Notes: generated from the sequence alone by a model not told the origin. A DNA stretch of 11,301 nucleotides from Exaiptasia diaphana (GCF_001417965.1 NW_018388003.1:643677-654977); one strand, 5' to 3'; numbered from the stretch's first letter, positions 1-11,301 are shown. Numbers and translations are program-made.

Positions 1-491
1 GTACATCTTTACTTCCAGTTCATCCTTCATTGTTTGTGGAGGTGGTGGGACTGCTTTTTTAAGTTCTTGGATTAAGCTCTCTCGTTCTTGGATTAAGCTC
101 TCTATCTCTCGTTGAGGCATGGCTGAACGTGCACGTCGCTTAGCTCGCAGTGAAGTTATTTCAGGTGGAGGAGGTGGTCCTCCACAAGGGGCAGGAGGTG
201 GAGGAGGTGGTCCCCCAAAAGGGGCAGGAGGTGGAAGGGGTGGTCCTTTGCTAGGAGGTGGAGGAGGTGGCCTTGCCCCAGTGGCAGAAAGTGGAGGAGA
301 TGGCCCTGCACCAGTGGCAGGAGGTGGAGGAGGTGGACCTCTCCTAGGGGCAGGAGTTGGGAGGCGTGGTCCTCTCCTAGGGGCAGGAGTTGGGGGGCGT
401 GGTCCTCTACTAGGAGGTGGCCCTGCCCCAGGAGCAGGAGGTGGAGGAGGGGGCGGTGGTAGGACCGCATTTACAGCAAATTTTTCATCTT
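1..491 (-). CDS. Poly-proline exon that continues beyond the window start: DEKFAVNAVLPPPPPPPPAPGAGPPPSRGPRPPTPAPRRGPRLPTPAPRRGPPPPPPATGAG...GGPPPPPPAPCGGPPPPPEITSLRAKRRARSAMPQREIESLIQERESLIQELKKAVPPPPQTMKDELEVKMY.
   Basis: I checked the frame codon by codon: it is a 163-codon open minus-strand frame. The acceptor is atctcttgcag| at 493-492, and the exon starts with 2 nt completing a codon, which is compatible with the FG exon ending in +1. The plus-strand Gly-rich ORF 119..523 is its antisense. Confidence 0.65.
170..470 (-). repeat. Imperfect tandem repeats of about 40-45 bp that encode the reiterated GPPPPPPAP(C/F)GG and APRRGPR(P/L)PTP poly-proline units.
   Basis: Recurring plus-strand ggtggaggaggtggtcc(t/c)cc...gggcaggagg blocks. 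The units are APRRGPR(P/L)PTP twice and GGPPPPPPAP twice, and the coding frame is verified. Confidence 0.8.
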
Positions 492-1193
492 CTGCAAGAG
501 ATCGCGATAAGATAAATCAATGAAAATAAATATGTATATAAATGACAGACATAAAATATTGAAATTAGGTGTAATATGATGGTCCTGGTGTGAGACGTCT
601 TGAGAACGACTGTTATAGTTTTACATGAGGTTTCGACATCCTGTGTGGATATTTACATATTTAATACCGACTTTGTCTGTTCGTCTTCTCACTCTGAATA
701 TAACTTCCACACAGGACGTCGAAATGTCAGGTGGTAACTACCGGACGATCACACCTACATCGCTTACACCTGGTTCAGACATAACATATTCACAATTAAA
801 CTATTAATTAGCAAATATAATTCATATTAATTCAGAAACAGACACTATATTTACATTGACCAACTTCAGAACACTAACGAAAAAACTCTCAAACAACCCT
901 CAGACACAGGAATTAGATGTCATTTTTGTGTAGGTGCGTAGGCTTGATAATCAAAAATAAAACGGTTTCTACTACGACTTAAGCACTAGTGATAGCCTAT
1001 GTCGTACTCTGAACCAGCACCAGACCCCTTGCATGTGACGTCAAAGCAGCTCCAGGAGGACAAAACACAAGATTATTTCCCTCTTGGGAACTAGAATCCA
1101 TTGTTTTGTCCTTCAGGTGCAGCTGCATTCCCATGTCTACAGATAATTGAAATAACAATCAAAAGTCATTAAGAAAGATGTGTTTTGACCTAC

Positions 1194-2159
1194 CCATGAG
1201 TAAAGGTTGTGAGCGATCGACGCCTGGCGAGGTTGGACTGTACTGAGGAGAAGGTGGACTAGGTGAGATACTTTCTTCTGTTCCCTTCACAAAACCTAGC
1301 AAATTTCCACCTGAACTACCTTGCTGCCCAAAAAGACTGGTATTTCCCATTAGGTTAAATGTTTTTGGTGGTACTCCAAACGCCAAGCCACCCGATTGAT
1401 TGACGGCACCACGGGATGGTGCTCCAAAAAGAGTAGTACCTTCCATTTGCTCAACTGGTTTTGTTGATCCTCCAAATGCAAAGCCACCCAATTCAATGCC
1501 CGCACCACTGGGTGGTGCTCCAAAACCAGATGGTATTCCATCAGCCCTTCCATCCATTGATTTTGTTTTAGGCATAGAGCGATACAATCCAAACATTCCC
1601 ATGCCGGTTTGCTCTGCACTAAATGCTGGACCAGAAGACGAAGCAAAACCAAAACTACTTGATGAACTTCTTGGTGCAGCACTACCAAACACTGGCTGGG
1701 ATAGTTTTTCTGGCTGTTGTTGCTGCACCGAGTCAAATAATCCGCCGCTCACTTTGGAAGCAGAAGATGAACCAAAAATAAATAACGAACTCGGTGCAGA
1801 CCCAAAAATACCTGTTGAACTATTTGCATCAGCAGTACCAAACAGTGGAGGTGCTACTTCTTGTTGCTGTTGTTGCTGCTGCTGTTGTTGTTGTACAGAG
1901 CCAAATAAGCCAAATCCAACAGCTGGTGCTGTTGTTGACTGTTGCTCTTTTGGCACTTCACTCGCTAAGAATGCACGACGTTGGGGTTTCATTTTCAAGT
2001 AATATTCTTTTTGCGGCTCAATTGGGATTGAAAATGATTCACTTTTAACATCCGCCTTACCAAGCATTAGTGAAGCCTTGTACGGTTTGAGATCCGCTGA
2101 AGCTTTATAGCATGTGACAGTCGGCTCAGCTTCAGATTTTTCGGGAACATAACCATAAA
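1194..2159 (-). CDS. 966-nt low-complexity exon with FG-type repeats (FGLFG, LFGTA, IFGSA, FIFGSS, VFGSA, FGFASS, GFAFGGS, LFGAPS, AFGVPP, LFGQQ), an 11-residue poly-Gln run and an S/P-rich end. It resembles an FG-nucleoporin repeat region.
   Basis: This is the listed ORF 1159..2067, and it is also open upstream as far as the acceptor ttttataatacag| at 2161-2160. The donor ATGG|gtaggt at 1193 keeps phase with the next exon. If that donor is not used a stop follows at 1159. Confidence 0.7.
1861..1894 (-). repeat. Coding (CAG/CAA)n tract encoding Q11 inside the FG-repeat exon.
   Basis: The plus strand reads ttgttgctgttgttgctgctgctgttgttgttg, which on the minus strand is CAA/CAG codons giving QQQQQQQQQQQ. 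Confidence 0.9.
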
Positions 2160-2531: not shown

Positions 2532-2817
2532 CTAAAGTACAATAAGGAAAATTGATCTATGATAAATTTAAGCAAACAAATAACGCTTCGTTCTTTCCCT
2601 TTCCCTCGATGCGTCTACAATTATTTCTACAAAATTAGATTTCAGTGGTTTTCAATAAGCCGTGAAATACATTTTAATTATTTAATACACTTTTCTTATT
2701 CTTTATTGTTCACCTTTTTTTGTCTTTTGGTTCATCAAACTTTAATGCGTCTTATCTATTACACATTATTTCAAGGGTTACTGAAAACCACTCTACTATT
2801 AAAGTTGTTATTGTTAC

Positions 2818-3360
2818 CAATGGAGCAGAAGTATGAAATGTTCTCATCAATGTCCACCTCAGTATCTCTACTGTTATCACGATCGGCATCTTCAAGCTCA
2901 ACCGGACTGTCAACGTCGCTATCAGAGTATCTGTGGAATCGCTCGAATCTGCGTGCACCTGCTCTTCTTCTTGTTCCAAAGAGCTGGTCTTCGGACTCAG
3001 TCATCTTAGTTCTTGCCTGAACCTCAGTTTCATCTTCTACACCACAACAAGTAATAGAACTCGAACTTGTGCTGTACTTTTCCCTTTCTTTCACTCCCTC
3101 TTCTTCCCATTCATCTTCCGAATCAGTCGAAACGGAGTCTGAATTGGAACTTGAACCATCAGAAGTTTCTGTTTCTGATAAATAATCTTTGATGATATCC
3201 TTTATATTCTCTGAAGGAAACATTGATTGACCAACTCTTAATATACGTCGAATTTCTTCATTGTCATCAATATCAGTGACATTTTCTAAGGTCTCTAAGC
3301 AGTCAATGAGATCACCAAATTTGGTCCGATCCAGCACGTCTATGTCAACATTTCCTCTCT
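2818..3360 (-). CDS. Long acidic/Ser-rich exon: (E)RGNVDIDVLDRTKFGDLIDCLETLENVTDIDDNEEIRRILRVGQSMFPSENIKDIIKDYLSETETSDGSSSNSDSVSTDSEDEWEEEGVKEREKY...DTEVDIDENISYFCSI(G).
   Basis: The exon is 543 nt with 181 open codons. The acceptor is tttcttatgtttag| and the donor is ATTG|gtaaca. It starts in phase 1, which matches the +1 end of exon 3794..4031, so it is probably a continuation of the PARP4-like ORF. Confidence 0.65.
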
Positions 3361-3793
3361 CTAAACATAAGAAATATAAAGATGAGAAAATTAAACAAGA
3401 CCATTGAAACATACTTATGAGGAGTCGGATAGGGTTAGGGTAAGGGGGCGGGGGAAGTAAAAACGTTTGAAGCAGCAGAAATGAAAGATATGAAGAATAA
3501 CATTAATACTAAAGACTTTTGTAGCAGCCCTAAGTAGATATTTTCTGAAATAATATCAAGCATGGCATTATCGTTTGTTTATGCTGCCAAATATAGTGCA
3601 ACTAGACCACAATGCAACATGGTTTTTGTAAAGATCTGTGACAGTGGTGCAATATCGCACCCAGAGCCCGCACGTTTGTCATAGAGTGGAAGACCACTGA
3701 CAAAGACTCTGTGCTCGAGATTCACAGCCATGAAAGACAGTAAAACATCATTATAAATAACTCGACCCAATGCAATTTTTACATGTTATTTAC

Positions 3794-4031
3794 CTAGAAT
3801 GCACACTAAAACAACAAGAATCACAAGTTTCTTGTCATCGTCCCCTAACACTTTGGCGTAAAAGTGGGCTAAATCTTTAAATGCCTGCCAACTTGTTTCC
3901 AAATTCAGCTCCTCAAAGTTGTCAAATACAATGGTACAAGCGTCTTTATAAAGATCTTCTGACTGAAGAAGTGAAACTCCTTCTAGTGACTTTGCTTCTA
4001 CAAGCAATCGATGGACATTGTCTTCTGGAGT
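3794..4031 (-). CDS. PARP4: Exon: TPEDNVHRLLVEAKSLEGVSLLQSEDLYKDACTIVFDNFEELNLETSWQAFKDLAHFYAKVLGDDDKKLVILVVLVCIL(G).
   Basis: The acceptor is ttggttttcag| and the donor is CTAG|gtaaat. The exon is 238 nt. If the intron were retained a TAA follows after 2 codons, giving ...ILGK*. Confidence 0.7.
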
Positions 4032-4123
4032 CTGAAAACCAATCATCATTATCATTATCATCATCATCATTTTCTTAATCAAATCACCCATCATTATCGT
4101 TATCACAAGCGTGTCATCATTAC

Positions 4124-4354
4124 CGGTTTGGTTTTCTCTGTAATCTGTGTTTGATTTGTTTCCTCCCATCCAACATATGGTATAATATCAACGTTTTCAC
4201 CAGCCACTAGTTCTAGTATACTAGGACCATTGTCAGCATCGAATTTTTCATCTTTTTCTCTAGTTTCAATGGCCACAAAACTGGTAAACTGGGACACGAT
4301 GGAGAACTCCTTGCTGAGCATTATGATACAATCTTTTTTGTCATGTTTGGCAAC
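4124..4354 (-). CDS. PARP4: Exon: VAKHDKKDCIIMLSKEFSIVSQFTSFVAIETREKDEKFDADNGPSILELVAGENVDIIPYVGWEETNQTQITEKTKP.
   Basis: The acceptor is ccattttag| and the donor is AAACCG|gtaatg. The exon is 231 nt. It contains TQFTSFVAVE, a segment conserved in PARP4 as I recall it. Confidence 0.85.
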
Positions 4355-4434
4355 CTAAAATGGTAAAAAAGAGTTTTAACCCCAGGGGGGAATAGATATA
4401 ACAATAACGACTTGGCTGATCCTCACTGACTTAC

Positions 4435-4596
4435 CTCATGTAATGTGTTATCAGCGTCTAAGTTTCCTTCTTCCCAGTCACGAATCATCGCCCTGGCAAC
4501 AAGCTGGTGTAAAATCTTGCCTCTGGTGATACTGAGATCAGATGTGGAGACCACTGTGGAAACTTCCCTGCTGTTCACTTCAGCTGACAGACTGGC
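4435..4596 (-). CDS. PARP4: Exon: ASLSAEVNSREVSTVVSTSDLSITRGKILHQLVARAMIRDWEEGNLDADNTLHE.
   Basis: The acceptor is acatttcag| and the donor is CATGAG|gtaagt. The exon is 162 nt. It carries the motif HQLAARALIRD that I recall in the conserved post-VWA region of PARP4. Confidence 0.8.
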
Positions 4597-4623
4597 CTGA
4601 AATGTAATTGGTAGATCGTTAAG

Positions 4624-4659
4624 AGCAGGAGCAGTAGCAGGAGCAGGAGCAGGAGCAGT
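4624..4659. repeat. (GCAGGA)n hexanucleotide repeat. It lies inside the 70-nt intron between the exons 4665..4739 and 4435..4596.
   Basis: Direct reading of agcaggagcagtagcaggagcaggagcaggagcag. Confidence 0.85.
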
Positions 4660-4664
4660 CTTAC

Positions 4665-4739
4665 CTGTGTACAATTAGATATCAGGCCATATACCACAAG
4701 TCTTGATCCATTGAACAAAGAAACAATCTCATGTGGAGC
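4665..4739 (-). CDS. PARP4: Exon: APHEIVSLFNGSRLVVYGLISNCTQ.
   Basis: The acceptor is cttcattttag| and the donor is ACACAG|gtaaga. The exon is 75 nt. Confidence 0.75.
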
Positions 4740-4805
4740 CTAAAATGAAGCATATCTATCGTTGCTTTTTTCTGAATATAATGGACAAACTGCTGCATAT
4801 CAAAC

Positions 4806-4901
4806 CTGCTCAGGGGGCGTGGCACAGCTGTCGTGCTGTTGCCAAGTAACTGATACTGACGTCAATCCAGGCTGTCCACACTTGGAAATTTGCTCTTTAA
4901 C
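4806..4901 (-). CDS. PARP4: Exon: VKEQISKCGQPGLTSVSVTWQQHDSCATPPEQ.
   Basis: The acceptor is ccgcttgaaaag|, which is weak, so the 5' boundary is tentative. The donor is GAGCAG|gtttga. I recall a similar SVSVKWQQ segment after the VWA domain in human PARP4. Confidence 0.65.
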
Positions 4902-4981
4902 CTTTTCAAGCGGAAAAACATTGCTTATTAGATTTAGTACTGTCAGAAATGAAAGAAAGAAATCGAAAAAATGAAAGAAAC

Positions 4982-5081
4982 CTTTCTTTCCCATTTTGAC
5001 TTTATCTTGGAATCAAAAAATTCACAGTCACCAGCACCAATACGTGCAAGAGAACGGAGAAAGTGGCGATTACTTGATGCA
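4982..5081 (-). CDS. PARP4: Exon at the end of the VWA domain: (G)ASSNRHFLRSLARIGAGDCEFFDSKIKSKWERK.
   Basis: The acceptor is ttttattgcag| and the donor is GAAAG|gtttct. The exon is 100 nt. Confidence 0.8.
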
Positions 5082-5152
5082 CTGCAATAAAACATACATC
5101 AAGACGTTGTGCTATGTCTTACAAGAAGTAATCAATCAATCAAATCACTCAC

Positions 5153-5349
5153 CCAACACCCATTGTAAACACTCTCGTCTTTAGTCGATGTTTTCTAACC
5201 AGCTTCATGGTTGTGGCTTCCTCTGTCACGTGACCATCGGAGATGATGATGACGTTTCTGGGATGATCTGCGGCTGACATGGATTGGATCAAACTCAATG
5301 ACTCCAAAACTCTCCATAAATCAGTACCTCCTTTGCGAGAAGTTGCAGA
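5153..5349 (-). CDS. PARP4: VWA exon: SATSRKGGTDLWRVLESLSLIQSMSAADHPRNVIIISDGHVTEEATTMKLVRKHRLKTRVFTMGVG.
   Basis: The acceptor is tttttgatag|, preceded by an in-frame stop. The donor is GTTGG|gtgagt. It contains GGT (the MIDAS Thr) and the VIIISDG motif. Confidence 0.9.
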
Positions 5350-5441
5350 CTATCAAAAATATTTGATATCATCAAAACAATGTCCTATAAACCTGTTTGA
5401 AGATCAAGTATGTGGCCATCACTATAGCCAATATATATTAC

Positions 5442-5515
5442 CATTATGAAATCAGTAGCTTGTGTGACTGTGAAGTTGTCTTTTGGTCGACTAGTTGGAA
5501 AGACCTCACTATGCG
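5442..5515 (-). CDS. PARP4: VWA exon: (S)HSEVFPTSRPKDNFTVTQATDFIM.
   Basis: The acceptor is tttacttcattag| and the donor is ATAATG|gtaata. The exon is 74 nt. Confidence 0.8.
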
Positions 5516-5724
5516 CTAATGAAGTAAAGAAAATACAAACAAATACTTGGAGAAAGAAATTAAAAACAGAAAATTGATAGTCAAAAAGGCAACTAAGACA
5601 ACCAATGGAATTGCAATCATAGGTACCAAAGTAACCATCTCCGTTCATTGCAAAGGTACATTTGTCCTTCAAGGTGGTGAGGGAATTTGGAAAGGCGACT
5701 ATATTGTTCTTTAATCATACTTAC

Positions 5725-5833
5725 AGCTCCCGAACACAGCAATGTTAAAAAGCCAGTTGTCAGGCAAGATTGTCAAACACATTAAAAGTATCTTCTTTGC
5801 TTGTTCAAATGGACTATCAACTTGACATGAACC
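5725..5833 (-). CDS. PARP4: VWA exon: GSCQVDSPFEQAKKILLMCLTILPDNWLFNIAVFGS.
   Basis: The acceptor is tatttttcag| and the donor is GGAGCT|gtaagt. The exon is 109 nt. Confidence 0.85.
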
Positions 5834-5982
5834 CTGAAAAATAAGTCTCAATTTGACAAAGAAACTGTTGATTTTTGCTGTTAGACTACTACAAGACTTT
5901 ATGTGAACAAAGAAATTAATGACATGATAGATTCAGTTAGTAATGCGTAGTTGATATTTGAAGCATATATCATGAATAATAC

Positions 5983-6075
5983 CTGCATAGAATTTGATGC
6001 ATCCAAGAAAAACAAGACTTCCGCTTGTGTACATGTTTCTGATTCAAACTCTGGATAAAAAACCAGCATACCAGC
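5983..6075 (-). CDS. PARP4: Exon at the start of the VWA domain: AGMLVFYPEFESETCTQAEVLFFLDASNSMQ. It contains the MIDAS DxSxS motif.
   Basis: The acceptor is tccctatag| and the donor is ATGCAG|gtatta. The exon is 93 nt. Confidence 0.9.
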
Positions 6076-6155
6076 CTATAGGGACACAACATAAAGAAGT
6101 ATAATGGTTGTGTTTGATTGGTATCAGATAGGACTAAAGAGATTTTAAAACATAC

Positions 6156-6293
6156 TTCACTATCATGTCTTGTATCATGGCTCTCGACCCACATTCTGGG
6201 AACATGAATCTCAGCCAATTGGATGACAAGCTGAAACCCATCACCTATCACATGACCTGACGCCATCTCTACCACAGCTTTAGTTGCAGTACG
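6156..6293 (-). CDS. PARP4: Exon: RTATKAVVEMASGHVIGDGFQLVIQLAEIHVPRMWVESHDTRHDSE.
   Basis: The acceptor is attatcag| and the donor is AGTGAA|gtatgt. The exon is 138 nt. The listed ORF 5970..6275 is this same region read one frame off and running through the intron. Confidence 0.75.
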
Positions 6294-6363
6294 CTGATAA
6301 TTAATAAGATTAAGATACAGTTAAGGAGTATTTTTGACTAAAACATCAGTTGCTTTCTTTTAC

Positions 6364-6445
6364 CTTGATTAAGATAGGATGGGTTGGTGATCTGATAGAC
6401 TTGATATCAAAAGGCATTTCTACAGCAACTTGAATGGTTGTATTT
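6364..6445 (-). CDS. PARP4: Exon: NTTIQVAVEMPFDIKSIRSPTHPILIK.
   Basis: The acceptor is tgttatttag| and the donor is ATCAAG|gtaaaa. The exon is 82 nt. Confidence 0.75.
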
Positions 6446-6480
6446 CTAAATAACAAAAAGACAATTCACAGGAAAGTTAG

Positions 6481-6590
6481 CGAGTGAATGAGTGAGTGAG
6501 TGATAGATTAGCTCCTTTCAAATGCAATCTCTGAGTCAAAAATGACAATTAAATAAAAAACAAAAAACAAACAAAAAAAAAAAAAAAAAG
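6481..6590. repeat. Intronic (GAGT)n microsatellite at 6481-6504 plus an A-rich, poly(A)-like tract at 6551-6589.
   Basis: Direct reading of cgagtgaatgagtgagtgagtgat and aaaaaacaaaaaacaaacaaaaaaaaaaaaaaaaaag. The A tract is the poly-pyrimidine side of the minus-strand intron. Confidence 0.9.
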
Positions 6591-6623
6591 CAGTGAGATG
6601 TGGAAAGAATGTTTTATTGTTAC

Positions 6624-6658
6624 CTCTCTTGCTCAACCTTGACAGTGTCAACATCACT
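6624..6658 (-). CDS. PARP4: 35-nt micro-exon: SDVDTVKVEQE(R).
   Basis: The acceptor is taatttgcag| and the donor is AGAGAG|gtaaca. It restores the phase between its neighbours. Confidence 0.75.
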
Positions 6659-6746
6659 CTGCAAATTATACAAAAAATACCATTTAATTGTGATTTCCTC
6701 ATTATAACATAATATAATAAATGATATATCACTGTTTATGGTTAAC

Positions 6747-6911
6747 CTGTATTTCATAATCAAGAGCTTGACTTTGTTTCCATGGTGCTACAGACCCAGG
6801 TAACTTGAAGCAAATGCTCTCTCCCTCAACATTAAGTTCTGCTACATATGTGATCTTGATCAAGACACTTGCATTCGGAGGAAGGTTGCCGACACTCACG
6901 GTAAACACATC
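6747..6911 (-). CDS. PARP4: VIT exon: DVFTVSVGNLPPNASVLIKITYVAELNVEGESICFKLPGSVAPWKQSQALDYEIQ.
   Basis: The acceptor is tttatttag| and the donor is ATACAG|gttaac (a weak donor). The exon is 165 nt. Confidence 0.9.
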
Positions 6912-6987
6912 CTAAATAAAACAAGAAATTAAGGATTAAATGCAGCAATACTACAGTTTTAGCAGACACATGGTGTGTGTGGCTTAC

Positions 6988-7121
6988 TGGCGTTTCTTCA
7001 TCCATTAAGTAGGCTCCATGGCCTTTGCTGATGGCTTCACGATACTCCTTGTGAGCTTGCTCTTTCTCTTTTACTTCACCAATGACATGTTTTCCATTTA
7101 TGAAAGCCTCAAAACCACAAA
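6988..7121 (-). CDS. PARP4: VIT exon: (V)CGFEAFINGKHVIGEVKEKEQAHKEYREAISKGHGAYLMDEETP.
   Basis: The acceptor is attttttcag| and the donor is ACGCCA|gtaagc. The exon is 134 nt. Confidence 0.9.
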
Positions 7122-7167
7122 CTGAAAAAATAGCAAATTTTTCAATTAATGAATCTATAACTCACTC

Positions 7168-7190
7168 AATTAATCAATCAATCATGTCAC
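7168..7190. repeat. Intronic (ATCA)n microsatellite. A second (CAAT)n block lies at 7376-7407.
   Basis: Direct reading of taatcaatcaatcatg and acaatcaatcaatctgtcagtcaatcaatcagg. Confidence 0.85.
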
Positions 7191-7275
7191 TCTGTTGTTT
7201 CCAATATCCAATTAATGGCCTTATCCCAGGTTGATTAATGAAATAATGTAATAATGATACATAAGAAACACATAC

Positions 7276-7360
7276 CAGCAGCCATGTCGTCCAGTGGAAA
7301 GACATACTTTGCCTCTATAGGTACAGAGCTGTTATTCTTGTAAGATTGTAAAACTACAAC
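7276..7360 (-). CDS. PARP4: VIT exon: VVVLQSYKNNSSVPIEAKYVFPLDDMAA.
   Basis: The acceptor is ttgttctgtag| and the donor is GCTGCTG|gtatgt. The sequence is nearly identical to what I recall of the human PARP4/VWA5A VIT core. Confidence 0.9.
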
Positions 7361-7430
7361 CTACAGAACAAAGATACAATCAATCAATCTGTCAGTCAAT
7401 CAATCAGGACATTATATCTAATCAAGCATC

Positions 7431-7511
7431 TATTATTATTATTATTTCTTCATTCACTCATCCTTTTATTCATTTTACCATGTATTCATTCATTCATTCA
7501 TTCATTCATTT
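7431..7511. repeat. Intronic microsatellites: (ATT)n at 7431-7446 and (CATT/TCAT)n at about 7448-7511.
   Basis: Direct reading of tattattattattatt and cattcattcattcattcattcatt in the intron between the exons 7533..7675 and 7276..7360. Confidence 0.9.
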
Positions 7512-7532
7512 AATTTAATTATCTATCTGTAC

Positions 7533-7675
7533 CTGACCAACAAGGTCCATTAGTTTTGCTCGAATATGTACAGCTTGAAGTGGGACGGGTACATCACCAC
7601 TGCCTTTAAGACCTGCTTTGACCTTAGACAATGGATCAGCCACAGACATAACATCTGATACATCAATTTGCCGAG
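7533..7675 (-). CDS. PARP4: Exon at the start of the VIT domain: (A)RQIDVSDVMSVADPLSKVKAGLKGSGDVPVPLQAVHIRAKLMDLVGQ.
   Basis: The acceptor is tccctgcag| and the donor is GGTCAG|gtacag. It carries the VPL....V...I....A V motif that opens VIT domains. Confidence 0.85.
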
Positions 7676-7747
7676 CTGCAGGGATGTAATTATAGTTTTC
7701 AATACAAAAGTAGCAGTATTAACTATCCAAATATTGCATTGATTTAC

Positions 7748-7866
7748 CATAAAAATCTTGGTTCTCTGATTCTTCATCCTCTTCAATATTTAGTTCTTGC
7801 AATAAAGTAACATCAACTTGACGTTTTCTTGTGTGCTCTCCATTCAAACTAAACTCAACAAGATAT
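7748..7866 (-). CDS. PARP4: Exon at the end of the catalytic domain: YLVEFSLNGEHTRKRQVDVTLLQELNIEEDEESENQDFY.
   Basis: The acceptor is ttttgtag| and the donor is TTTATG|gtaaat. It follows the RYL..F motif that ends the PARP fold. Confidence 0.8.
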
Positions 7867-7981
7867 CTACAAAAGAAGATTTTAGCAGGTTTAACTTCAA
7901 GCATCAAAATTAAAAGATGAGCAAGCAGGATACAAACCAAATATATCTTATCCAGGTTGACACATAACTGTGTTATCATAC

Positions 7982-8124
7982 CTCATTTGTTGCTGGTTTG
8001 TATTATAAATCACAAATTCATTGTTTTTAAAGTCTGATGGTTCTTGATTTGTCTCAGCAACACCACAAACACTATCAAAGCCAGCAGGAGGCGATGTCAA
8101 CTCTTTGTTAAAATGTCTGTAACG
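7982..8124 (-). CDS. PARP4: Exon of the catalytic domain: RYRHFNKELTSPPAGFDSVCGVAETNQEPSDFKNNEFVIYNTNQQQM(R). It contains the catalytic Glu (the YNEY-like NNEFVIY).
   Basis: The acceptor is tccttacag| and the donor is AATGAG|gtatga. The exon is 143 nt. Confidence 0.85.
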
Positions 8125-8264
8125 CTGTAAGGATTTATTAGTAGCTTGTTTTAGTAATTCATTTAGTTCATTAAGTATAAACTCAGTAAAAGTTTAATGA
8201 AGAGCTTTGCAAGATTTATTACAAATCAAATAACAAAAAAATATTTTGAATATGGGAACCTTAC

Positions 8265-8346
8265 CTTAATTTTACCTAATGCCACCTCACTAATCAGCAT
8301 AAACCGGGAACCATTGCCCCCACAGGTTGAGTATTTAGCACTAGTA
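8265..8346 (-). CDS. PARP4: Exon of the catalytic domain: TSAKYSTCGGNGSRFMLISEVALGKIK.
   Basis: The acceptor is tgattatag| and the donor is ATTAAG|gtaagg. It carries the SKSA.Y....LLL.EVALG motif. Confidence 0.85.
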
Positions 8347-8442
8347 CTATAATCATGAATGATAACAGCTCAATGATATATTATTGAGTTTAATTATTGA
8401 ATAATATAATAAATGATACAATAAATTTTAACTTCTGAATAC

Positions 8443-8541
8443 CTTATAGAATCACCAAAATAGATTCCCCCTCCAAGCATGCCAGCATCAGATCTCACGC
8501 CACCAAAGTCATCTACAATGATCTTAGGAAGCAGTAACCCT
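8443..8541 (-). CDS. PARP4: Exon of the catalytic domain: GLLLPKIIVDDFGGVRSDAGMLGGGIYFGDSI(S).
   Basis: The acceptor is caattttag| and the donor is TATAAG|gtattc. It contains the GIYF(A/G)D NAD-binding motif. Confidence 0.85.
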
Positions 8542-8623
8542 CTAAAATTGGACAACAACAGATAGTTTGATTGGTGAGAATTACATCTAGTGATAGAAAT
8601 TGCAATTAACTAGATAAAATTAC

Positions 8624-8652
8624 CTTGAAAGGATTCCAACAAAGTTGTTTGC
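8624..8652 (-). CDS. PARP4: 29-nt micro-exon of the catalytic domain: ANNFVGILS(R).
   Basis: The acceptor is cttcgcag| and the donor is TTTCAAG|gtaatt. The segment aligns to PARP1 TTNFAGILSQG. Confidence 0.8.
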
Positions 8653-8733
8653 CTGCGAAGACGAAATTATTAATGATATATTCAATAAACAAATGCAATT
8701 GAATCATAATATCTTTTTCTCGTCATAACATAC

Positions 8734-8842
8734 TCTCGATGCATGGAAGAGAAGTCTTTTGTCATCAATGTTGTGTGCGAAATTGCTTTCCTCTACTGGA
8801 CGGTGAAGGGAGAAGATATTGATGATTTCTACTTCTGAAGAA
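8734..8842 (-). CDS. PARP4: Exon of the PARP catalytic domain: (C)SSEVEIINIFSLHRPVEESNFAHNIDDKRLLFHASR. It contains the catalytic His motif (HGS in PARP1, HAS here).
   Basis: The acceptor is ttctttcag| and the donor is TCGAGA|gtatgt. The segment aligns to PARP1 LEVIDIFKIEREGE...NRRLLWHGSR. Confidence 0.85.
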
Positions 8843-8973
8843 CTGAAAGAATAATTTGTTGACAAACTCATTACATCACACAAAATAACTTAATTGAGTT
8901 TTAGCTCAATAATACATAATTAATTAATATTGAAATTTGATTAAAGAGTTATCAAATTGTTTCATTTACGTAC

Positions 8974-9134
8974 CATGTCTGGCTTGACAAAATATAAGCT
9001 TTGATTCTTTTAAACTCTTCATTGTCATGTTCCATGTAATCAATGTGGCATTTTAGAGCTCTATAAAGAGTTAAGTCTGACTTTCCTGATGACATGTTAT
9101 AGCATTCACCAACTGTGATGATGTCCCTTATGAT
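8974..9134 (-). CDS. PARP4: Exon encoding the end of the regulatory domain and the start of the catalytic domain: IIRDIITVGECYNMSSGKSDLTLYRALKCHIDYMEHDNEEFKRIKAYILSSQT.
   Basis: The acceptor is tttttaatag| and the donor is ACATG|gtacgt. The exon is 161 nt. It carries the pattern LKC.I..L....EF..I..Y that is typical just upstream of the PARP catalytic core. Confidence 0.8.
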
Positions 9135-9348
9135 CTATTAAAAACAAAGAAATCAAGAAAAACCATTATGAATAGGTTAACTAATAATTGTGTTAGTTTT
9201 TCCCAGTGCTCTGGTCATTGACAGTGACATGTTGAGACTTTGAAAGTTGCCTATGACTATAAAAATGATGACAAAAATGATATTATGAACAATATGATGA
9301 TCACATCATTTTTATAGCAAATGTTGTACTAAATGTCACTTAACCCAC

Positions 9349-9690
9349 CTGACACAAATTCTGTTTCTCTGCAATGAGGCTTTTGCTAAACTTTGAGACA
9401 GCGTCTAAACCATTAGCCTGAGGTATACATTGACAGAAATCTCCCCAGAGCTTCTGCATCTTGTCCTGGCTACCACTATCATCCAGACATCCCTTCATTA
9501 ACGTCAAAATAGCTTCAGCTTCCTGTAGTTTTTGAAGTTTTATGTTTTCAACAGTCCCTTTGATAACATCACCCACAAGCTTATCAGCCTCATCCCACAG
9601 ACACTTCACAAGACTTGTTACTTCTAATAGACCTGATGATTTTAGTAGAGGTTGAGCTCCATCACCACTTGACTGCATGTCAAGATATTG
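9349..9690 (-). CDS. PARP4: Exon encoding the PARP regulatory (alpha-helical) domain: QYLDMQSSGDGAQPLLKSSGLLEVTSLVKCLWDEADKLVGDVIKGTVENIKLQKLQEAEAILTLMKGC...LIAEKQNLCQ.
   Basis: An in-frame stop lies directly upstream of the acceptor gtttttag|. The donor is TGTCAG|gtgggt. The exon is 342 nt. Its helical, amphipathic character is similar to the PARP1 regulatory domain. Confidence 0.8.
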
Positions 9691-9809
9691 CTAAAAACAT
9701 TAAACAACATGTGATGTTAGTATTAATCAAAGTTTGCAATGAGTAAAGCCATTTGTTGCTGCAAGCACATGACATCTTGCTTCATGTCATGTCATGTATT
9801 CATACAAAC

Positions 9810-10109
9810 CTCTTTCATTTTATCAGATCCAATCTTGGATGACAAAAGTGATGAAGCCCTCATATAACCATTACTTATTGCAGCTCTGTCATGTAATGCA
9901 ACATAGATACCCATTGCTTCTTCTGCCGTGTACACATAACAACACTCCTTAAACCCCTGACCATGCCCTTCATTATGGTGCTTTAATAGTTCTAAATTGC
10001 CGTGGTGAGTAAAGATACGGTATCGCTGAGATTCACATGGGATAGGTTGAGGTATAACATGCAGCTCAATTTCAAGAAACTTGCTTGTCTTTCCATCATC
10101 ATCATTTTG
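9810..10109 (-). CDS. PARP4: Exon encoding the region between the BRCT and PARP regulatory domains: QNDDDGKTSKFLEIELHVIPQPIPCESQRYRIFTHHGNLELL...GIYVALHDRAAISNGYMRASSLLSSKIGSDKMKE.
   Basis: A 300-nt open frame matches the listed ORF 9792..10115. The acceptor is gatttgcag| and the donor is AAAGAG|gtttgt. Phase is 0 at both ends. Confidence 0.7.
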
Positions 10110-10371
10110 CTGCAAATCATAAGCAAAACATTTAACATCTTACACGACTTTGATCACAAAAGAAATCTTCACTGATAACTATCGTTGAGTATTTTAATTG
10201 ATTAGTACATCATTTATTGAGAAGCATTCTCTTGGTGAGCACATATTTCAATCACTAGGAATCAGCTACACGATTCATCTGCATAAATATTGCTTCACAT
10301 TATTCTTTACACGATCCCCTCTAGGGAATTCAATTGGCATAATGTTTGGTCTTCTATTGCTTTAGTCATAC

Positions 10372-10453
10372 CTTGAATAACACATTTTTGGCTATCTTGT
10401 AGTCTTTCTCAGAATAGGGTGGTGAACTTCTAGCATCTTTATAAGGCCAAACA
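10372..10453 (-). CDS. PARP4: Exon: (S)VWPYKDARSSPPYSEKDYKIAKNVLFK.
   Basis: The acceptor is attttaaag| and the donor is TTCAAG|gtatga. The exon is 82 nt and its phases are compatible with both neighbours. Confidence 0.55.
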
Positions 10454-10535
10454 CTTTAAAATAAAATATTTTATATACATAAGAGGAGAATGGTGGATTA
10501 ATTTATAGAATTATATTTTATATTGTTCAAATTAC

Positions 10536-10626
10536 CTTAAATTTGCTAATTTTGAATCGTCAAATTTGATCAAATTAGTTTCTTTTTTATTTTTATTGGA
10601 AGATAAATCTTTTGGTTTTGAGTATG
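10536..10626 (-). CDS. PARP4: Short Lys-rich linker exon: (T)YSKPKDLSSNKNKKETNLIKFDDSKLANL.
   Basis: The acceptor is ttatctccacag| and the donor is TTTAAG|gtaatt. The 91-nt length is exactly what is needed to bridge the phases of the flanking exons. The sequence is low complexity, so this call rests mainly on splice signals and phase. Confidence 0.45.
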
Positions 10627-10751
10627 CTGTGGAGATAAGAATATCACAGAGTCATTACAAAAAATAGTAGAGGCGCTTCAAATTAATCATCACCATCATC
10701 GTCATCATCATCATTATTATAAGGAAGTAGTAGTAATCTATGCCATCTTAC

Positions 10752-10965
10752 TGTTAATTTTGCCCGTCTTCAGCTGGTTATTTTCAAGTTGATATTCAGA
10801 GTCACAGAATGGATAAGTATAAAGTGGAAGATCTATGAACTCTTTCTTTTTGATGCAGTTTTCAATAAACTCCATTTTAACAATCTCGGTGCCATATTTT
10901 AATGCTGTAGCTCCTTTGTAAGATGAATACGTCTTTTTTGGATCAGCTGTCAGCAGAACGTGTGA
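10752..10965 (-). CDS. PARP4: Exon encoding the C-terminal half of the BRCT domain: SHVLLTADPKKTYSSYKGATALKYGTEIVKMEFIENCIKKKEFIDLPLY...KTGKIN.
   Basis: The acceptor is ttctttttag| and the donor is ACA|gtaaga. The exon is 214 nt, starts in phase 0 and ends with 1 extra nt. It has the BRCT consensus features (THV..., W/F-I..C). Confidence 0.75.
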
Positions 10966-11199
10966 CTAAAAAGAATATTTTTTAAAACATTGTAGATATA
11001 CGTATGCATAATTTTACCCCCTCCCCCCTAAACCAGAGTTGTTGATCATCAAAGAAACTTCCTGTAGACGAAGGAAGGTTTCTGCATCGCAAACCAACTC
11101 AAAAATACCACAAAATTCACAAATTTTGCAAAAATCATTGTTAAGTTCAAAACTCTTCCTATCTAAGTCAGTCAAGCAGCAATCATTGACAATTCATAC

Positions 11200-11301
11200 C
11201 TTTCTTGTCAAAATATACGAGACGATTCCTCCATTGGAAGTGATGTCTTCACGGAGTTTTTGCTTCTTTTTGAACGGCACATAGGTAAAACTTGAGGAAT
11301 C
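11200..11301 (-). CDS. PARP4: Exon (5' end lies beyond the window) encoding the N-terminal half of the BRCT domain: DSSSFTYVPFKKKQKLREDITSNGGIVSYILTRK.
   Basis: The frame is open from the window edge. The donor is AAG|gtatga at 11199-11198. The BRCT-like motif NGG.V...THV continues into the next exon. Confidence 0.7.

Follow-up and report, generated by a model that had tools for sequence, protein, structure and literature searches.

One of the closest described systems is human PARP4, the vault PARP whose architecture and mechanism have been reported (PMC12212138; PMC12280208). [quoted passage not shown] PARP4 orthologues have already been annotated in other cnidarians, among them the PARP4-like proteins of Actinia tenebrosa (XP_031548613.1 and XP_031548614.1) and PARP4 of Nematostella vectensis (XP_048577466.1). 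Two other groups of proteins resemble parts of PARP4. PARP1, PARP2 and PARP3 (clade 1) share the helical domain and the ADP-ribosyltransferase (ART) fold, but carry the catalytic domain at the C terminus and lack VIT and von Willebrand factor A (vWA) domains. [quoted passage not shown]

Here we describe a stretch of 11,301 nucleotides from the sea anemone Exaiptasia diaphana (hereafter the window), which contains a PARP4 orthologue on the minus strand. The domain order of its product is that of the Actinia and Nematostella proteins, and we are confident that one PARP4 gene spans the whole window, exons 31–35 included.

Exon–intron structure

We rebuilt the exon model from the raw minus strand, independently of the coordinates of the first-pass annotation. 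The resulting model has 30 exons running from 11301 to 3794, with GT-AG at every junction, consistent phases and no internal stop codon, in agreement with the earlier description of an uninterrupted, phase-consistent 30-exon reading frame. The exons are listed below; the model is supported by GT-AG boundaries, an open frame, tblastn and shared introns.

Exons 1–6, minus strand: 11301-11200, 10965-10752, 10626-10536, 10453-10372, 10109-9810, 9690-9349
Exons 7–12, minus strand: 9134-8974, 8842-8734, 8652-8624, 8541-8443, 8346-8265, 8124-7982
Exons 13–18, minus strand: 7866-7748, 7675-7533, 7360-7276, 7121-6988, 6911-6747, 6658-6624
Exons 19–24, minus strand: 6445-6364, 6293-6156, 6075-5983, 5833-5725, 5515-5442, 5349-5153
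Exons 25–30, minus strand: 5081-4982, 4901-4806, 4739-4665, 4596-4435, 4354-4124, 4031-3794

Searches by tblastn with three cnidarian PARP4 proteins as queries recovered 28–29 of the 30 exons. Intron positions and phases are shared with the Actinia PARP4 gene in 30 of 30 cases and with the Nematostella gene in 27 of 30. Chance cannot account for such agreement, and the 30-exon model is correct. In total, 4,030 nt are exonic and 3,478 nt fall in the 29 internal introns. Introns measure 66–262 nt (median 92), which slightly widens the 70–260 nt given earlier; the very short introns and the microexons stand. One microexon measures 29 nt (8652-8624) and another 35 nt (6658-6624); both have equal sizes in Actinia, and the 29-nt one is also found in Nematostella. 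GC content is 0.40 in exons versus 0.30 in introns. Scans of the window for Rfam families, tRNAs, and bacterial promoters and terminators returned nothing above chance.

The chain had been called complete, a description that holds at neither end. Exon 1 is cut by the window end at 11301, which places about 13 N-terminal codons and the ATG beyond the window: Actinia isoform X1 begins MVNRFFEGIQFVL, and the window protein picks up with the next residues, DSSSFTYVPFKKKQ. At the other end, position 3794 is a splice donor from which the gene very probably goes on in the 3' direction. We also could not reproduce the report that open reading frames (ORFs) recover only 2 of the 30 exons, as with the minimum length set at 50, 60, 80 and 100 amino acids, in-frame ORFs starting with ATG, GTG or TTG overlapped 16, 9, 7 and 4 exons, respectively. 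The expectation that automated annotation would fragment such a gene found no support in these relatives: the RefSeq models of PARP4 in two anemones are full-length, with 43–45 exons; both contain the 29-nt microexon, and that of Actinia also has the one of 35 nt.

The claim of compactness held up well. The same stretch occupies 7.5 kb in the window versus approximately 27 kb in Actinia and Nematostella, making the window gene about 3.6 times more compact, and the median intron of 92 nt compares with approximately 430–470 nt in these two species. The window gene lacks five introns held by both Actinia and Nematostella, with the corresponding fusions lying in window exons 5, 12, 28, 29 and 30.

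Domains and orthology

The domains encoded by exons 1–30 are as follows.

10752..11301, minus strand: BRCT domain (exons 1–2, model residues 8–83)
9810..10453, minus strand: presumed WGR-like domain, between the BRCT and helical domains (exons 4–5)
7982..9690, minus strand: helical (PARP regulatory) and ART catalytic domain (exons 6–12, residues ~279–596)
6747..7675, minus strand: VIT domain (exons 14–17, residues 657–767)
4982..6075, minus strand: vWA domain with a MIDAS-type D-A-S-N-S motif (exons 21–25, residues 904–1066)
3794..4901, minus strand: post-vWA conserved region (exons 26–30)

Pfam matches along the spliced protein fall in the order BRCT_2, (PARP_reg), PARP, VIT and VWA_3. An N-terminal BRCT domain is present (BRCT_2, 31.2 bits against a cut-off of 27.3; profile positions 14–85 of 86). 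The first-pass annotation had expected a Pfam scan of the joined exons to return BRCT, PARP_reg, PARP, VIT and VWA in that order; all five came in this order, PARP_reg at 14.4 bits, under its 26.8 cut-off. A helical domain ahead of the ART fold is nevertheless present, as the human PARP4 HD–ART crystal chain (8sx1_A) aligns with query residues 279–596 (E = 1.3e-66) and PARP1 catalytic fragments match from query residue 304, the PARP1 helical domain included (E ~1e-20). The presumed WGR-like domain was missing from the domain list of the first-pass annotation.

The catalytic domain (Pfam PARP, 109 bits, 2.4e-31) occupies residues 416–591 of at least 2,070 and thus lies mid-protein. Its H-Y-E triad is kept, with His, Tyr and Glu opposite HGS, IYF and DEF of human PARP4. 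The VIT domain matches the whole profile (positions 1–111, 128 bits, 3e-37), and the vWA domain (VWA_3, residues 904–1064, 74 bits, 1.8e-20; VWA, 1.4e-09) keeps the DxSxS motif, with FLDASNSM opposite human CLDCSSSM. VIT is followed by vWA, both C-terminal to the catalytic domain, as in PARP4.

Human PARP4 was the best match among solved structures, in one continuous alignment over query residues 279–1258 (E = 4.5e-248, 816 bits) that runs into the post-vWA conserved region. The 120 database matches listed were all PARP4 by name or by domain match, a few of them carrying generic labels with the same Pfam domains; among these, Actinia (65% identity) and Nematostella (56%) ranked at the top. Over exons 1–30 the identity is an even 65% to Actinia and 57% to Nematostella. 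Given the PARP4 best matches, the Pfam domains and the gene structure in common with Actinia, the original proposal of a PARP4 (vault PARP) orthologue is fully supported; the gene belongs to clade 5 and comes from a sea anemone.

Human PARP4 (PDB 11jf, 9bw6 and 8sx1) is alike in its BRCT domain, HD–ART with H-Y-E, VIT domain and vWA domain with DxSxS. It differs in the region between the BRCT and helical domains (WGR), which is unalignable by sequence, and in its C-terminal linker, which is of other composition. Clade 1 PARPs match through the helical domain and ART fold (E 1e-20 to 1e-14), but the catalytic domain of the window protein is central, as in clade 5. ITIH1 and ITIH4 match the VIT–vWA tandem (E ~1e-10, query residues 657–1143). 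Because ITIH proteins have no BRCT or PARP modules, both of which the window protein carries upstream in one open frame, the window gene lies outside the ITIH family.

Continuation beyond exon 30

Several observations indicate that the gene very probably runs past 3794 and on to window position 1, its further exons being acidic, FG-rich or poly-proline. Exon 30 spans exactly 238 nt between a shared phase-0 acceptor and a phase-1 donor; the equivalent exons of Actinia (147+91) and Nematostella (144+94) add up to the same length and end in the same phase. This agreement of length and phase in three species argues for continuation, as does the length of the orthologous proteins (1,827–2,354 amino acids). 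Adding five further exons gives an extended model of 35 exons and 2,070 codons without a stop, in which every added exon is bounded by AG/GT and is phase 1 to 1. Finally, the acidic, FG and poly-proline modules are colinear with those of Actinia and include a 342-codon open run. The features of this region are as follows.

3793-3792, minus strand: GT donor of exon 30, phase 1; an in-frame TAA follows at 3788-3786 if the intron is kept
2818..3360, minus strand: putative exon 31 (543 nt, AG/GT, phase 1 to 1, open frame), a linker that is acidic and rich in Ser
2531-2433 and 2326-2246, minus strand: putative exons 32 and 33, acidic (each phase 1 to 1, open frame in the extended model)
1194..2159, minus strand: putative exon 34 (966 nt, phase 1 to 1), rich in Gln, Gly, Ser and Phe and carrying FG-type repeats
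1008..1136, minus strand: candidate for an optional exon within a 702-nt intron (129 nt, AG/GT, phase 1 to 1, open frame)
1..491, minus strand: putative exon 35 (AG acceptor, phase 1, open to the window edge), with poly-proline repeats and then a charged coiled segment

The counterpart of exon 31 is Actinia exons 36–38 (76+431 nt, phase 1 to 1), and in the best local alignment exon 31 lies colinear with residues 1335–1474 of the Nematostella protein (z = 3.4). Exons 32 and 33 form a tandem duplication; the aligned DNA, which also takes in the donor and ~35 nt of the intron on the acceptor side, has 83% column identity. For exon 34, the stop-free run of 342 codons far exceeds the maximum of 199 in 500 shuffles. 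This exon contains a 96-nt repeat at 1328-1525, matches Pfam Nucleoporin_FG at 24 bits (under the 32.2 cut-off), and is colinear with the place of LFGSASGG repeats in Actinia PARP4. Exon 35 carries 7.8 copies of a 33-nt repeat at 163-414 and is colinear with poly-proline tracts of Actinia (1898–2021) and Nematostella (1859–1991; z = 3.9). A long, low-complexity C-terminal linker with poly-proline tracts, present in Actinia and Nematostella, would be common to the three species. The candidate exon at 1008..1136 has a GC content of 0.48, above that of the 57 nt immediately upstream (0.28) and of the 516 nt downstream (0.35); Pfam and alignment gave no homology support for it. We take the ORFs on the plus strand, at 119-523, 1400-2002 and 2559-3020, to be antisense shadows cast by coding exons of low complexity.

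At the residue level, blastp and Smith–Waterman alignment with shuffles (z 0–3.9) found nothing beyond composition in common between exons 31–35 and the C termini of Actinia and Nematostella PARP4, and a database search with exons 30–34 (408 amino acids), aimed at transcripts or closer relatives that cross the 30/31 junction, returned no matches at E <= 1e-3. We also looked for the actin-like fragment of these two proteins, in which actin (PF00022) scores 46–48 bits. The window protein, including exon 34 and the ORF at 1136-1008, had no Pfam actin match at E <= 10. By eye, a remnant of the actin D-loop region was suspected in the opening residues of exon 34, KPYKASLMLGKAD, and in VFCPPGAALTSHARGLVLV, from the ORF at 1136-1008, but this was ruled out, as their alignment scores fell under the shuffle means (z < 0) and neither gave a Pfam actin match. 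Compared with Actinia and Nematostella, the window gene therefore has no detectable actin-like fragment, and its small acidic exon is tandemly duplicated.

Discussion

The reading that most directly competes with a gene spanning the window is that PARP4 stops at the TAA at 3788-3786, with no linker or MINT domain, and that the ORFs on the minus strand at 3360-1 are parts of another gene or genes, which might encode an FG-repeat nucleoporin-like protein and a proline-rich formin- or WASP-like protein. The in-frame stop two codons past the putative donor, the lack of significant residue-level similarity between the downstream exons and PARP4 C termini, and the weak Nucleoporin_FG match would all fit such an arrangement. 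However, the donor at 3794 sits at an intron position and phase conserved in Actinia and Nematostella PARP4, and the orthologues go on for 500–1,000 more residues past this point, with acidic, FG/Gly-rich and poly-proline segments in like order. Moreover, the downstream exons open at phase-1 AG acceptors instead of start codons, and all are phase 1 to 1 and join stop-free. We therefore consider an end at the TAA improbable.

Still less probable, to the point of being hardly credible, is that the locus represents a PARP4 paralogue that is decaying or no longer functions, and not the functional orthologue. PARP4 duplications are known from several animals, including frog, sea urchin and Trichoplax (PMC4245714), and the loss of the actin-like insert and of five introns could be taken as signs of decay. 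Against this, the 2,070 codons contain no stop or frameshift, every splice site is canonical, neither the H-Y-E triad nor the MIDAS motif has been lost, VIT scores across its full profile, and identity to Actinia stays at an even 65% over exons 1–30.

We thus favour a model in which the whole window would lie inside one minus-strand PARP4 gene of 35 exons, possibly 36, encoding at least 2,070 residues. From the N terminus the protein runs through BRCT, a presumed WGR-like region, the helical domain, ART with H-Y-E, VIT, vWA and a conserved helical post-vWA segment, and would then enter a long, low-complexity linker that passes from acidic to FG-rich to poly-proline. The start codon lies about 13 codons past 11301, and a C-terminal MINT (MVP-interaction) domain would lie past position 1; the Actinia gene product has a recorded MVP-ID domain (PF26156), with four more exons after the equivalent of exon 35. 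By analogy with the human enzyme, the BRCT domain may bind vault RNA or other nucleic acid, HD–ART would use NAD+ to mono-ADP-ribosylate targets, VIT and vWA may provide protein contacts, and the MINT domain would dock on MVP repeats 3–5 inside the vault cage. The window protein is therefore predicted, from its homology, to be enzymatically active and to associate with vaults. A short product, formed by retention of intron 30 and ending at the stop two codons past the exon-30 donor, is possible.

A broader evolutionary scenario is speculative, and we think it rather unlikely: in an anthozoan lineage with an unusually compact genome, PARP4 may have shed five or more ancestral introns together with the actin-like insert, shrunk its remaining introns to ~90 nt and gained a tandemly duplicated, possibly alternative, acidic exon, and intron-30 retention could also give a MINT-less, vault-independent isoform.

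The window gene adds no new domain combination to the cnidarian PARP4 genes already annotated, and the importance that the first-pass annotation attached to it is not supported. Its genuine feature is compaction, together with the five introns missing in comparison with two other anemones. The significance of these findings is small: they provide an accurate, homology-validated gene model for a sea-anemone PARP4 without a counterpart in the protein databases searched, and show that its introns are strongly shrunken, with five of them lost, by comparison with Actinia and Nematostella.

The window encodes a PARP4 orthologue in an open frame

We built an exon chain from the minus strand of positions 3500-11301 and a list of all stop-free segments, leaving the coordinates of the first-pass annotation unused. 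The chain comprised 30 exons between 11301 and 3794 (minus strand), two of them microexons (29 and 35 nt), with GT-AG at all junctions, agreeing phases and no internal stops. The open, phase-consistent 30-exon frame of the first-pass annotation was thus right in detail, and its intron range of 70-260 nt was close to the 66-262 nt (median 92) measured for the 29 internal introns. Mean GC content was 40% in exons and 30% in introns. In tblastn searches with Actinia, Nematostella and Acropora proteins as queries, 28-29 of the 30 exons were recovered at the derived coordinates. Isoform X1 of Actinia PARP4 begins with MVNRFFEGIQFVL followed by DSSSFTYVPFKKKQ; the window starts at DSSSFTYVPFKKKQ, and the ATG and about 13 codons therefore lie beyond position 11301.

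The 120 matches listed from a large protein collection were all named or domain-matched PARP4, the few with generic labels having the same Pfam domains; the best among them reached 65% identity in Actinia tenebrosa, 56% in Nematostella vectensis and 52-53% in stony corals, which places the source of the window among the sea anemones. The gene retains the BRCT domain, the helical and ADP-ribosyltransferase domains (HD-ART) with H-Y-E, VIT and a vWA domain that carries a MIDAS-type motif, all in an intact frame. It is an ordinary PARP4 orthologue and had been correctly read as PARP4.

Intron positions are conserved and introns are short

We mapped the RefSeq proteins exon by exon on the PARP4 loci of Actinia (35.9 kb; 45 segments) and Nematostella (38.0 kb; 43 segments), treating two Actinia segments 3 nt apart as one exon, and compared intron positions in a three-way protein alignment. 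Each of the 30 intron positions in the window, that of the donor at 3794 included, has a counterpart of the same position and phase in Actinia; 27 of the 30 also have one in Nematostella. Exon lengths were often identical to the nucleotide (29, 99, 82, 85, 134, 165 and 35 nt, among others, and also 82, 138, 93, 74, 197, 100, 96 and 75 nt). The window gene lacks five introns common to both relatives, and its exons 5, 12, 28, 29 and 30 are therefore fusions of two ancestral exons each. The compaction described in the first-pass annotation is real: exon 1 to the phase-1 donor takes 7.5 kb, compared with about 27 kb in each relative, and the median intron is 92 nt rather than about 430-470 nt, the remaining introns being about fivefold shorter. 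The first-pass annotation expected automated pipelines to break up a gene of this kind; in the relatives they did not, and both RefSeq models are full length, microexons included (29 nt in both, 35 nt in Actinia).

The gene probably continues past position 3794

Exon 30 is exactly 238 nt in the window, between a phase-0 acceptor that the three genes share and a phase-1 GT donor, and the same span is also 238 nt in Actinia (147+91) and Nematostella (144+94), whose proteins run 500-1,000 residues further. Downstream in the window we found the following.

Predicted downstream exons of the window gene
3360-2818, minus strand: exon 31, acidic and Ser-rich; open frame, phase 1, AG/GT
2531-2433, minus strand: exon 32, acidic; phase 1, AG/GT
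2326-2246, minus strand: exon 33, acidic; phase 1, AG/GT
2159-1194, minus strand: exon 34, Gln/Gly/Ser/Phe-rich with FG repeats; phase 1, AG/GT
491-1, minus strand: exon 35, poly-proline; frame open to the window edge

Together these give a stop-free extended model of 35 exons and 2,070 codons. A stop-free run of 342 codons at exon 34 compares with a maximum of 199 in 500 shuffles. Actinia PARP4 has acidic, FG/Gly-rich and poly-Pro modules in the same succession, and the best local alignments of the downstream exons to the relatives' C termini fall at colinear places. In these exons, residue-level similarity to the relatives was not above that expected from composition (z 0-3.9), and a database search with exons 30-34 as query gave no match. 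If the last intron is retained, the frame runs 1,345 residues to a TAA at 3788-3786. A gene end at 3786, with the downstream ORFs as separate genes, is improbable, as the exon-30 donor is conserved in the relatives. A pseudogene or decaying PARP4 paralogue is less probable still, because 2,070 codons are open, the splice sites are canonical and the catalytic residues are kept. From the conserved splice site, phase logic and module order, we consider it very likely that the gene continues through exons 31-35. The C-terminal MVP-interaction (MINT) domain would fall beyond window position 1.

The in-frame TAA lies two codons past the conserved donor (3786-3794), so that retention of intron 30 would truncate the product, which would end ...VLVCILGK and have neither linker nor MINT domain.

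Repeats, a duplicated exon and the actin-like fragment of the relatives

Exons 32 and 33 are adjacent tandem duplicates (83% column identity), the duplicated unit spanning about 35 nt of upstream polypyrimidine/acceptor region and the donor. As both are phase 1 to 1, the frame would hold whether either or both were spliced in. Coding tandem repeats occupy 163-414 in the poly-proline exon (33-nt, 11-codon unit; 7.8 copies) and 1328-1525 in the FG-rich exon (96-nt, 32-codon unit; 2.1 copies); plus-strand ORFs at 119-523 and 1400-2002 over the repeat regions are antisense shadows. Within the 702-nt intron between these exons, a 129-nt open segment (1008-1136, minus strand; AG acceptor, GT donor, phase 1 to 1, GC 0.48) may serve as an extra or alternative exon; no homology support was found for it.

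The proteins of both relatives include a stretch of about 60 residues of the actin N terminus (PF00022 profile positions 2-65; 46-48 bits), with no counterpart detected in the window gene. Perina et al. 2014 (PMC4245714) had already noted PARP4-like proteins with actin domains appended.

Actin-like fragments in the relatives
30490-30696 of the Actinia PARP4 locus (L001): own 207-nt exon, phase 1 to 1
Residues 1490-1555 of Nematostella PARP4 (P0002): PF00022

Implications for PARP4 in cnidarians

By analogy with the human enzyme, a lysine patch in the BRCT domain would bind vault RNA or duplex nucleic acid (PMC12212138); this patch reads QQQKKK in human PARP4 and FKKKQK at the same place in the window protein. 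The human HD is natively open, permitting constitutive mono-ADP-ribosylation (PMC12212138), and an open HD would allow the same activity here. MINT docks PARP4 on MVP repeats 3-5, inside the vault cage (PMC12280208); a flexible linker would join the window protein to this cage-binding domain.

The first-pass annotation stated the distribution of vaults correctly, in agreement with Perina et al. 2014 (PMC4245714) and Citarelli et al. 2010 (PMC2964712), but its suggestion of a vault-bearing lineage brings no new information, since cnidarians already belong to the vault-bearing groups. The family is well known and PARP4 is already annotated in cnidarians; the window gene adds another member. Its only mildly notable features are that it is 3.6-fold more compact and has lost five introns, that it lacks the actin-like insert of the two other anemones and that it carries the tandem exon duplication. 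The missing and short introns suggest either that the source genome is compact or that intron loss is specific to this gene.
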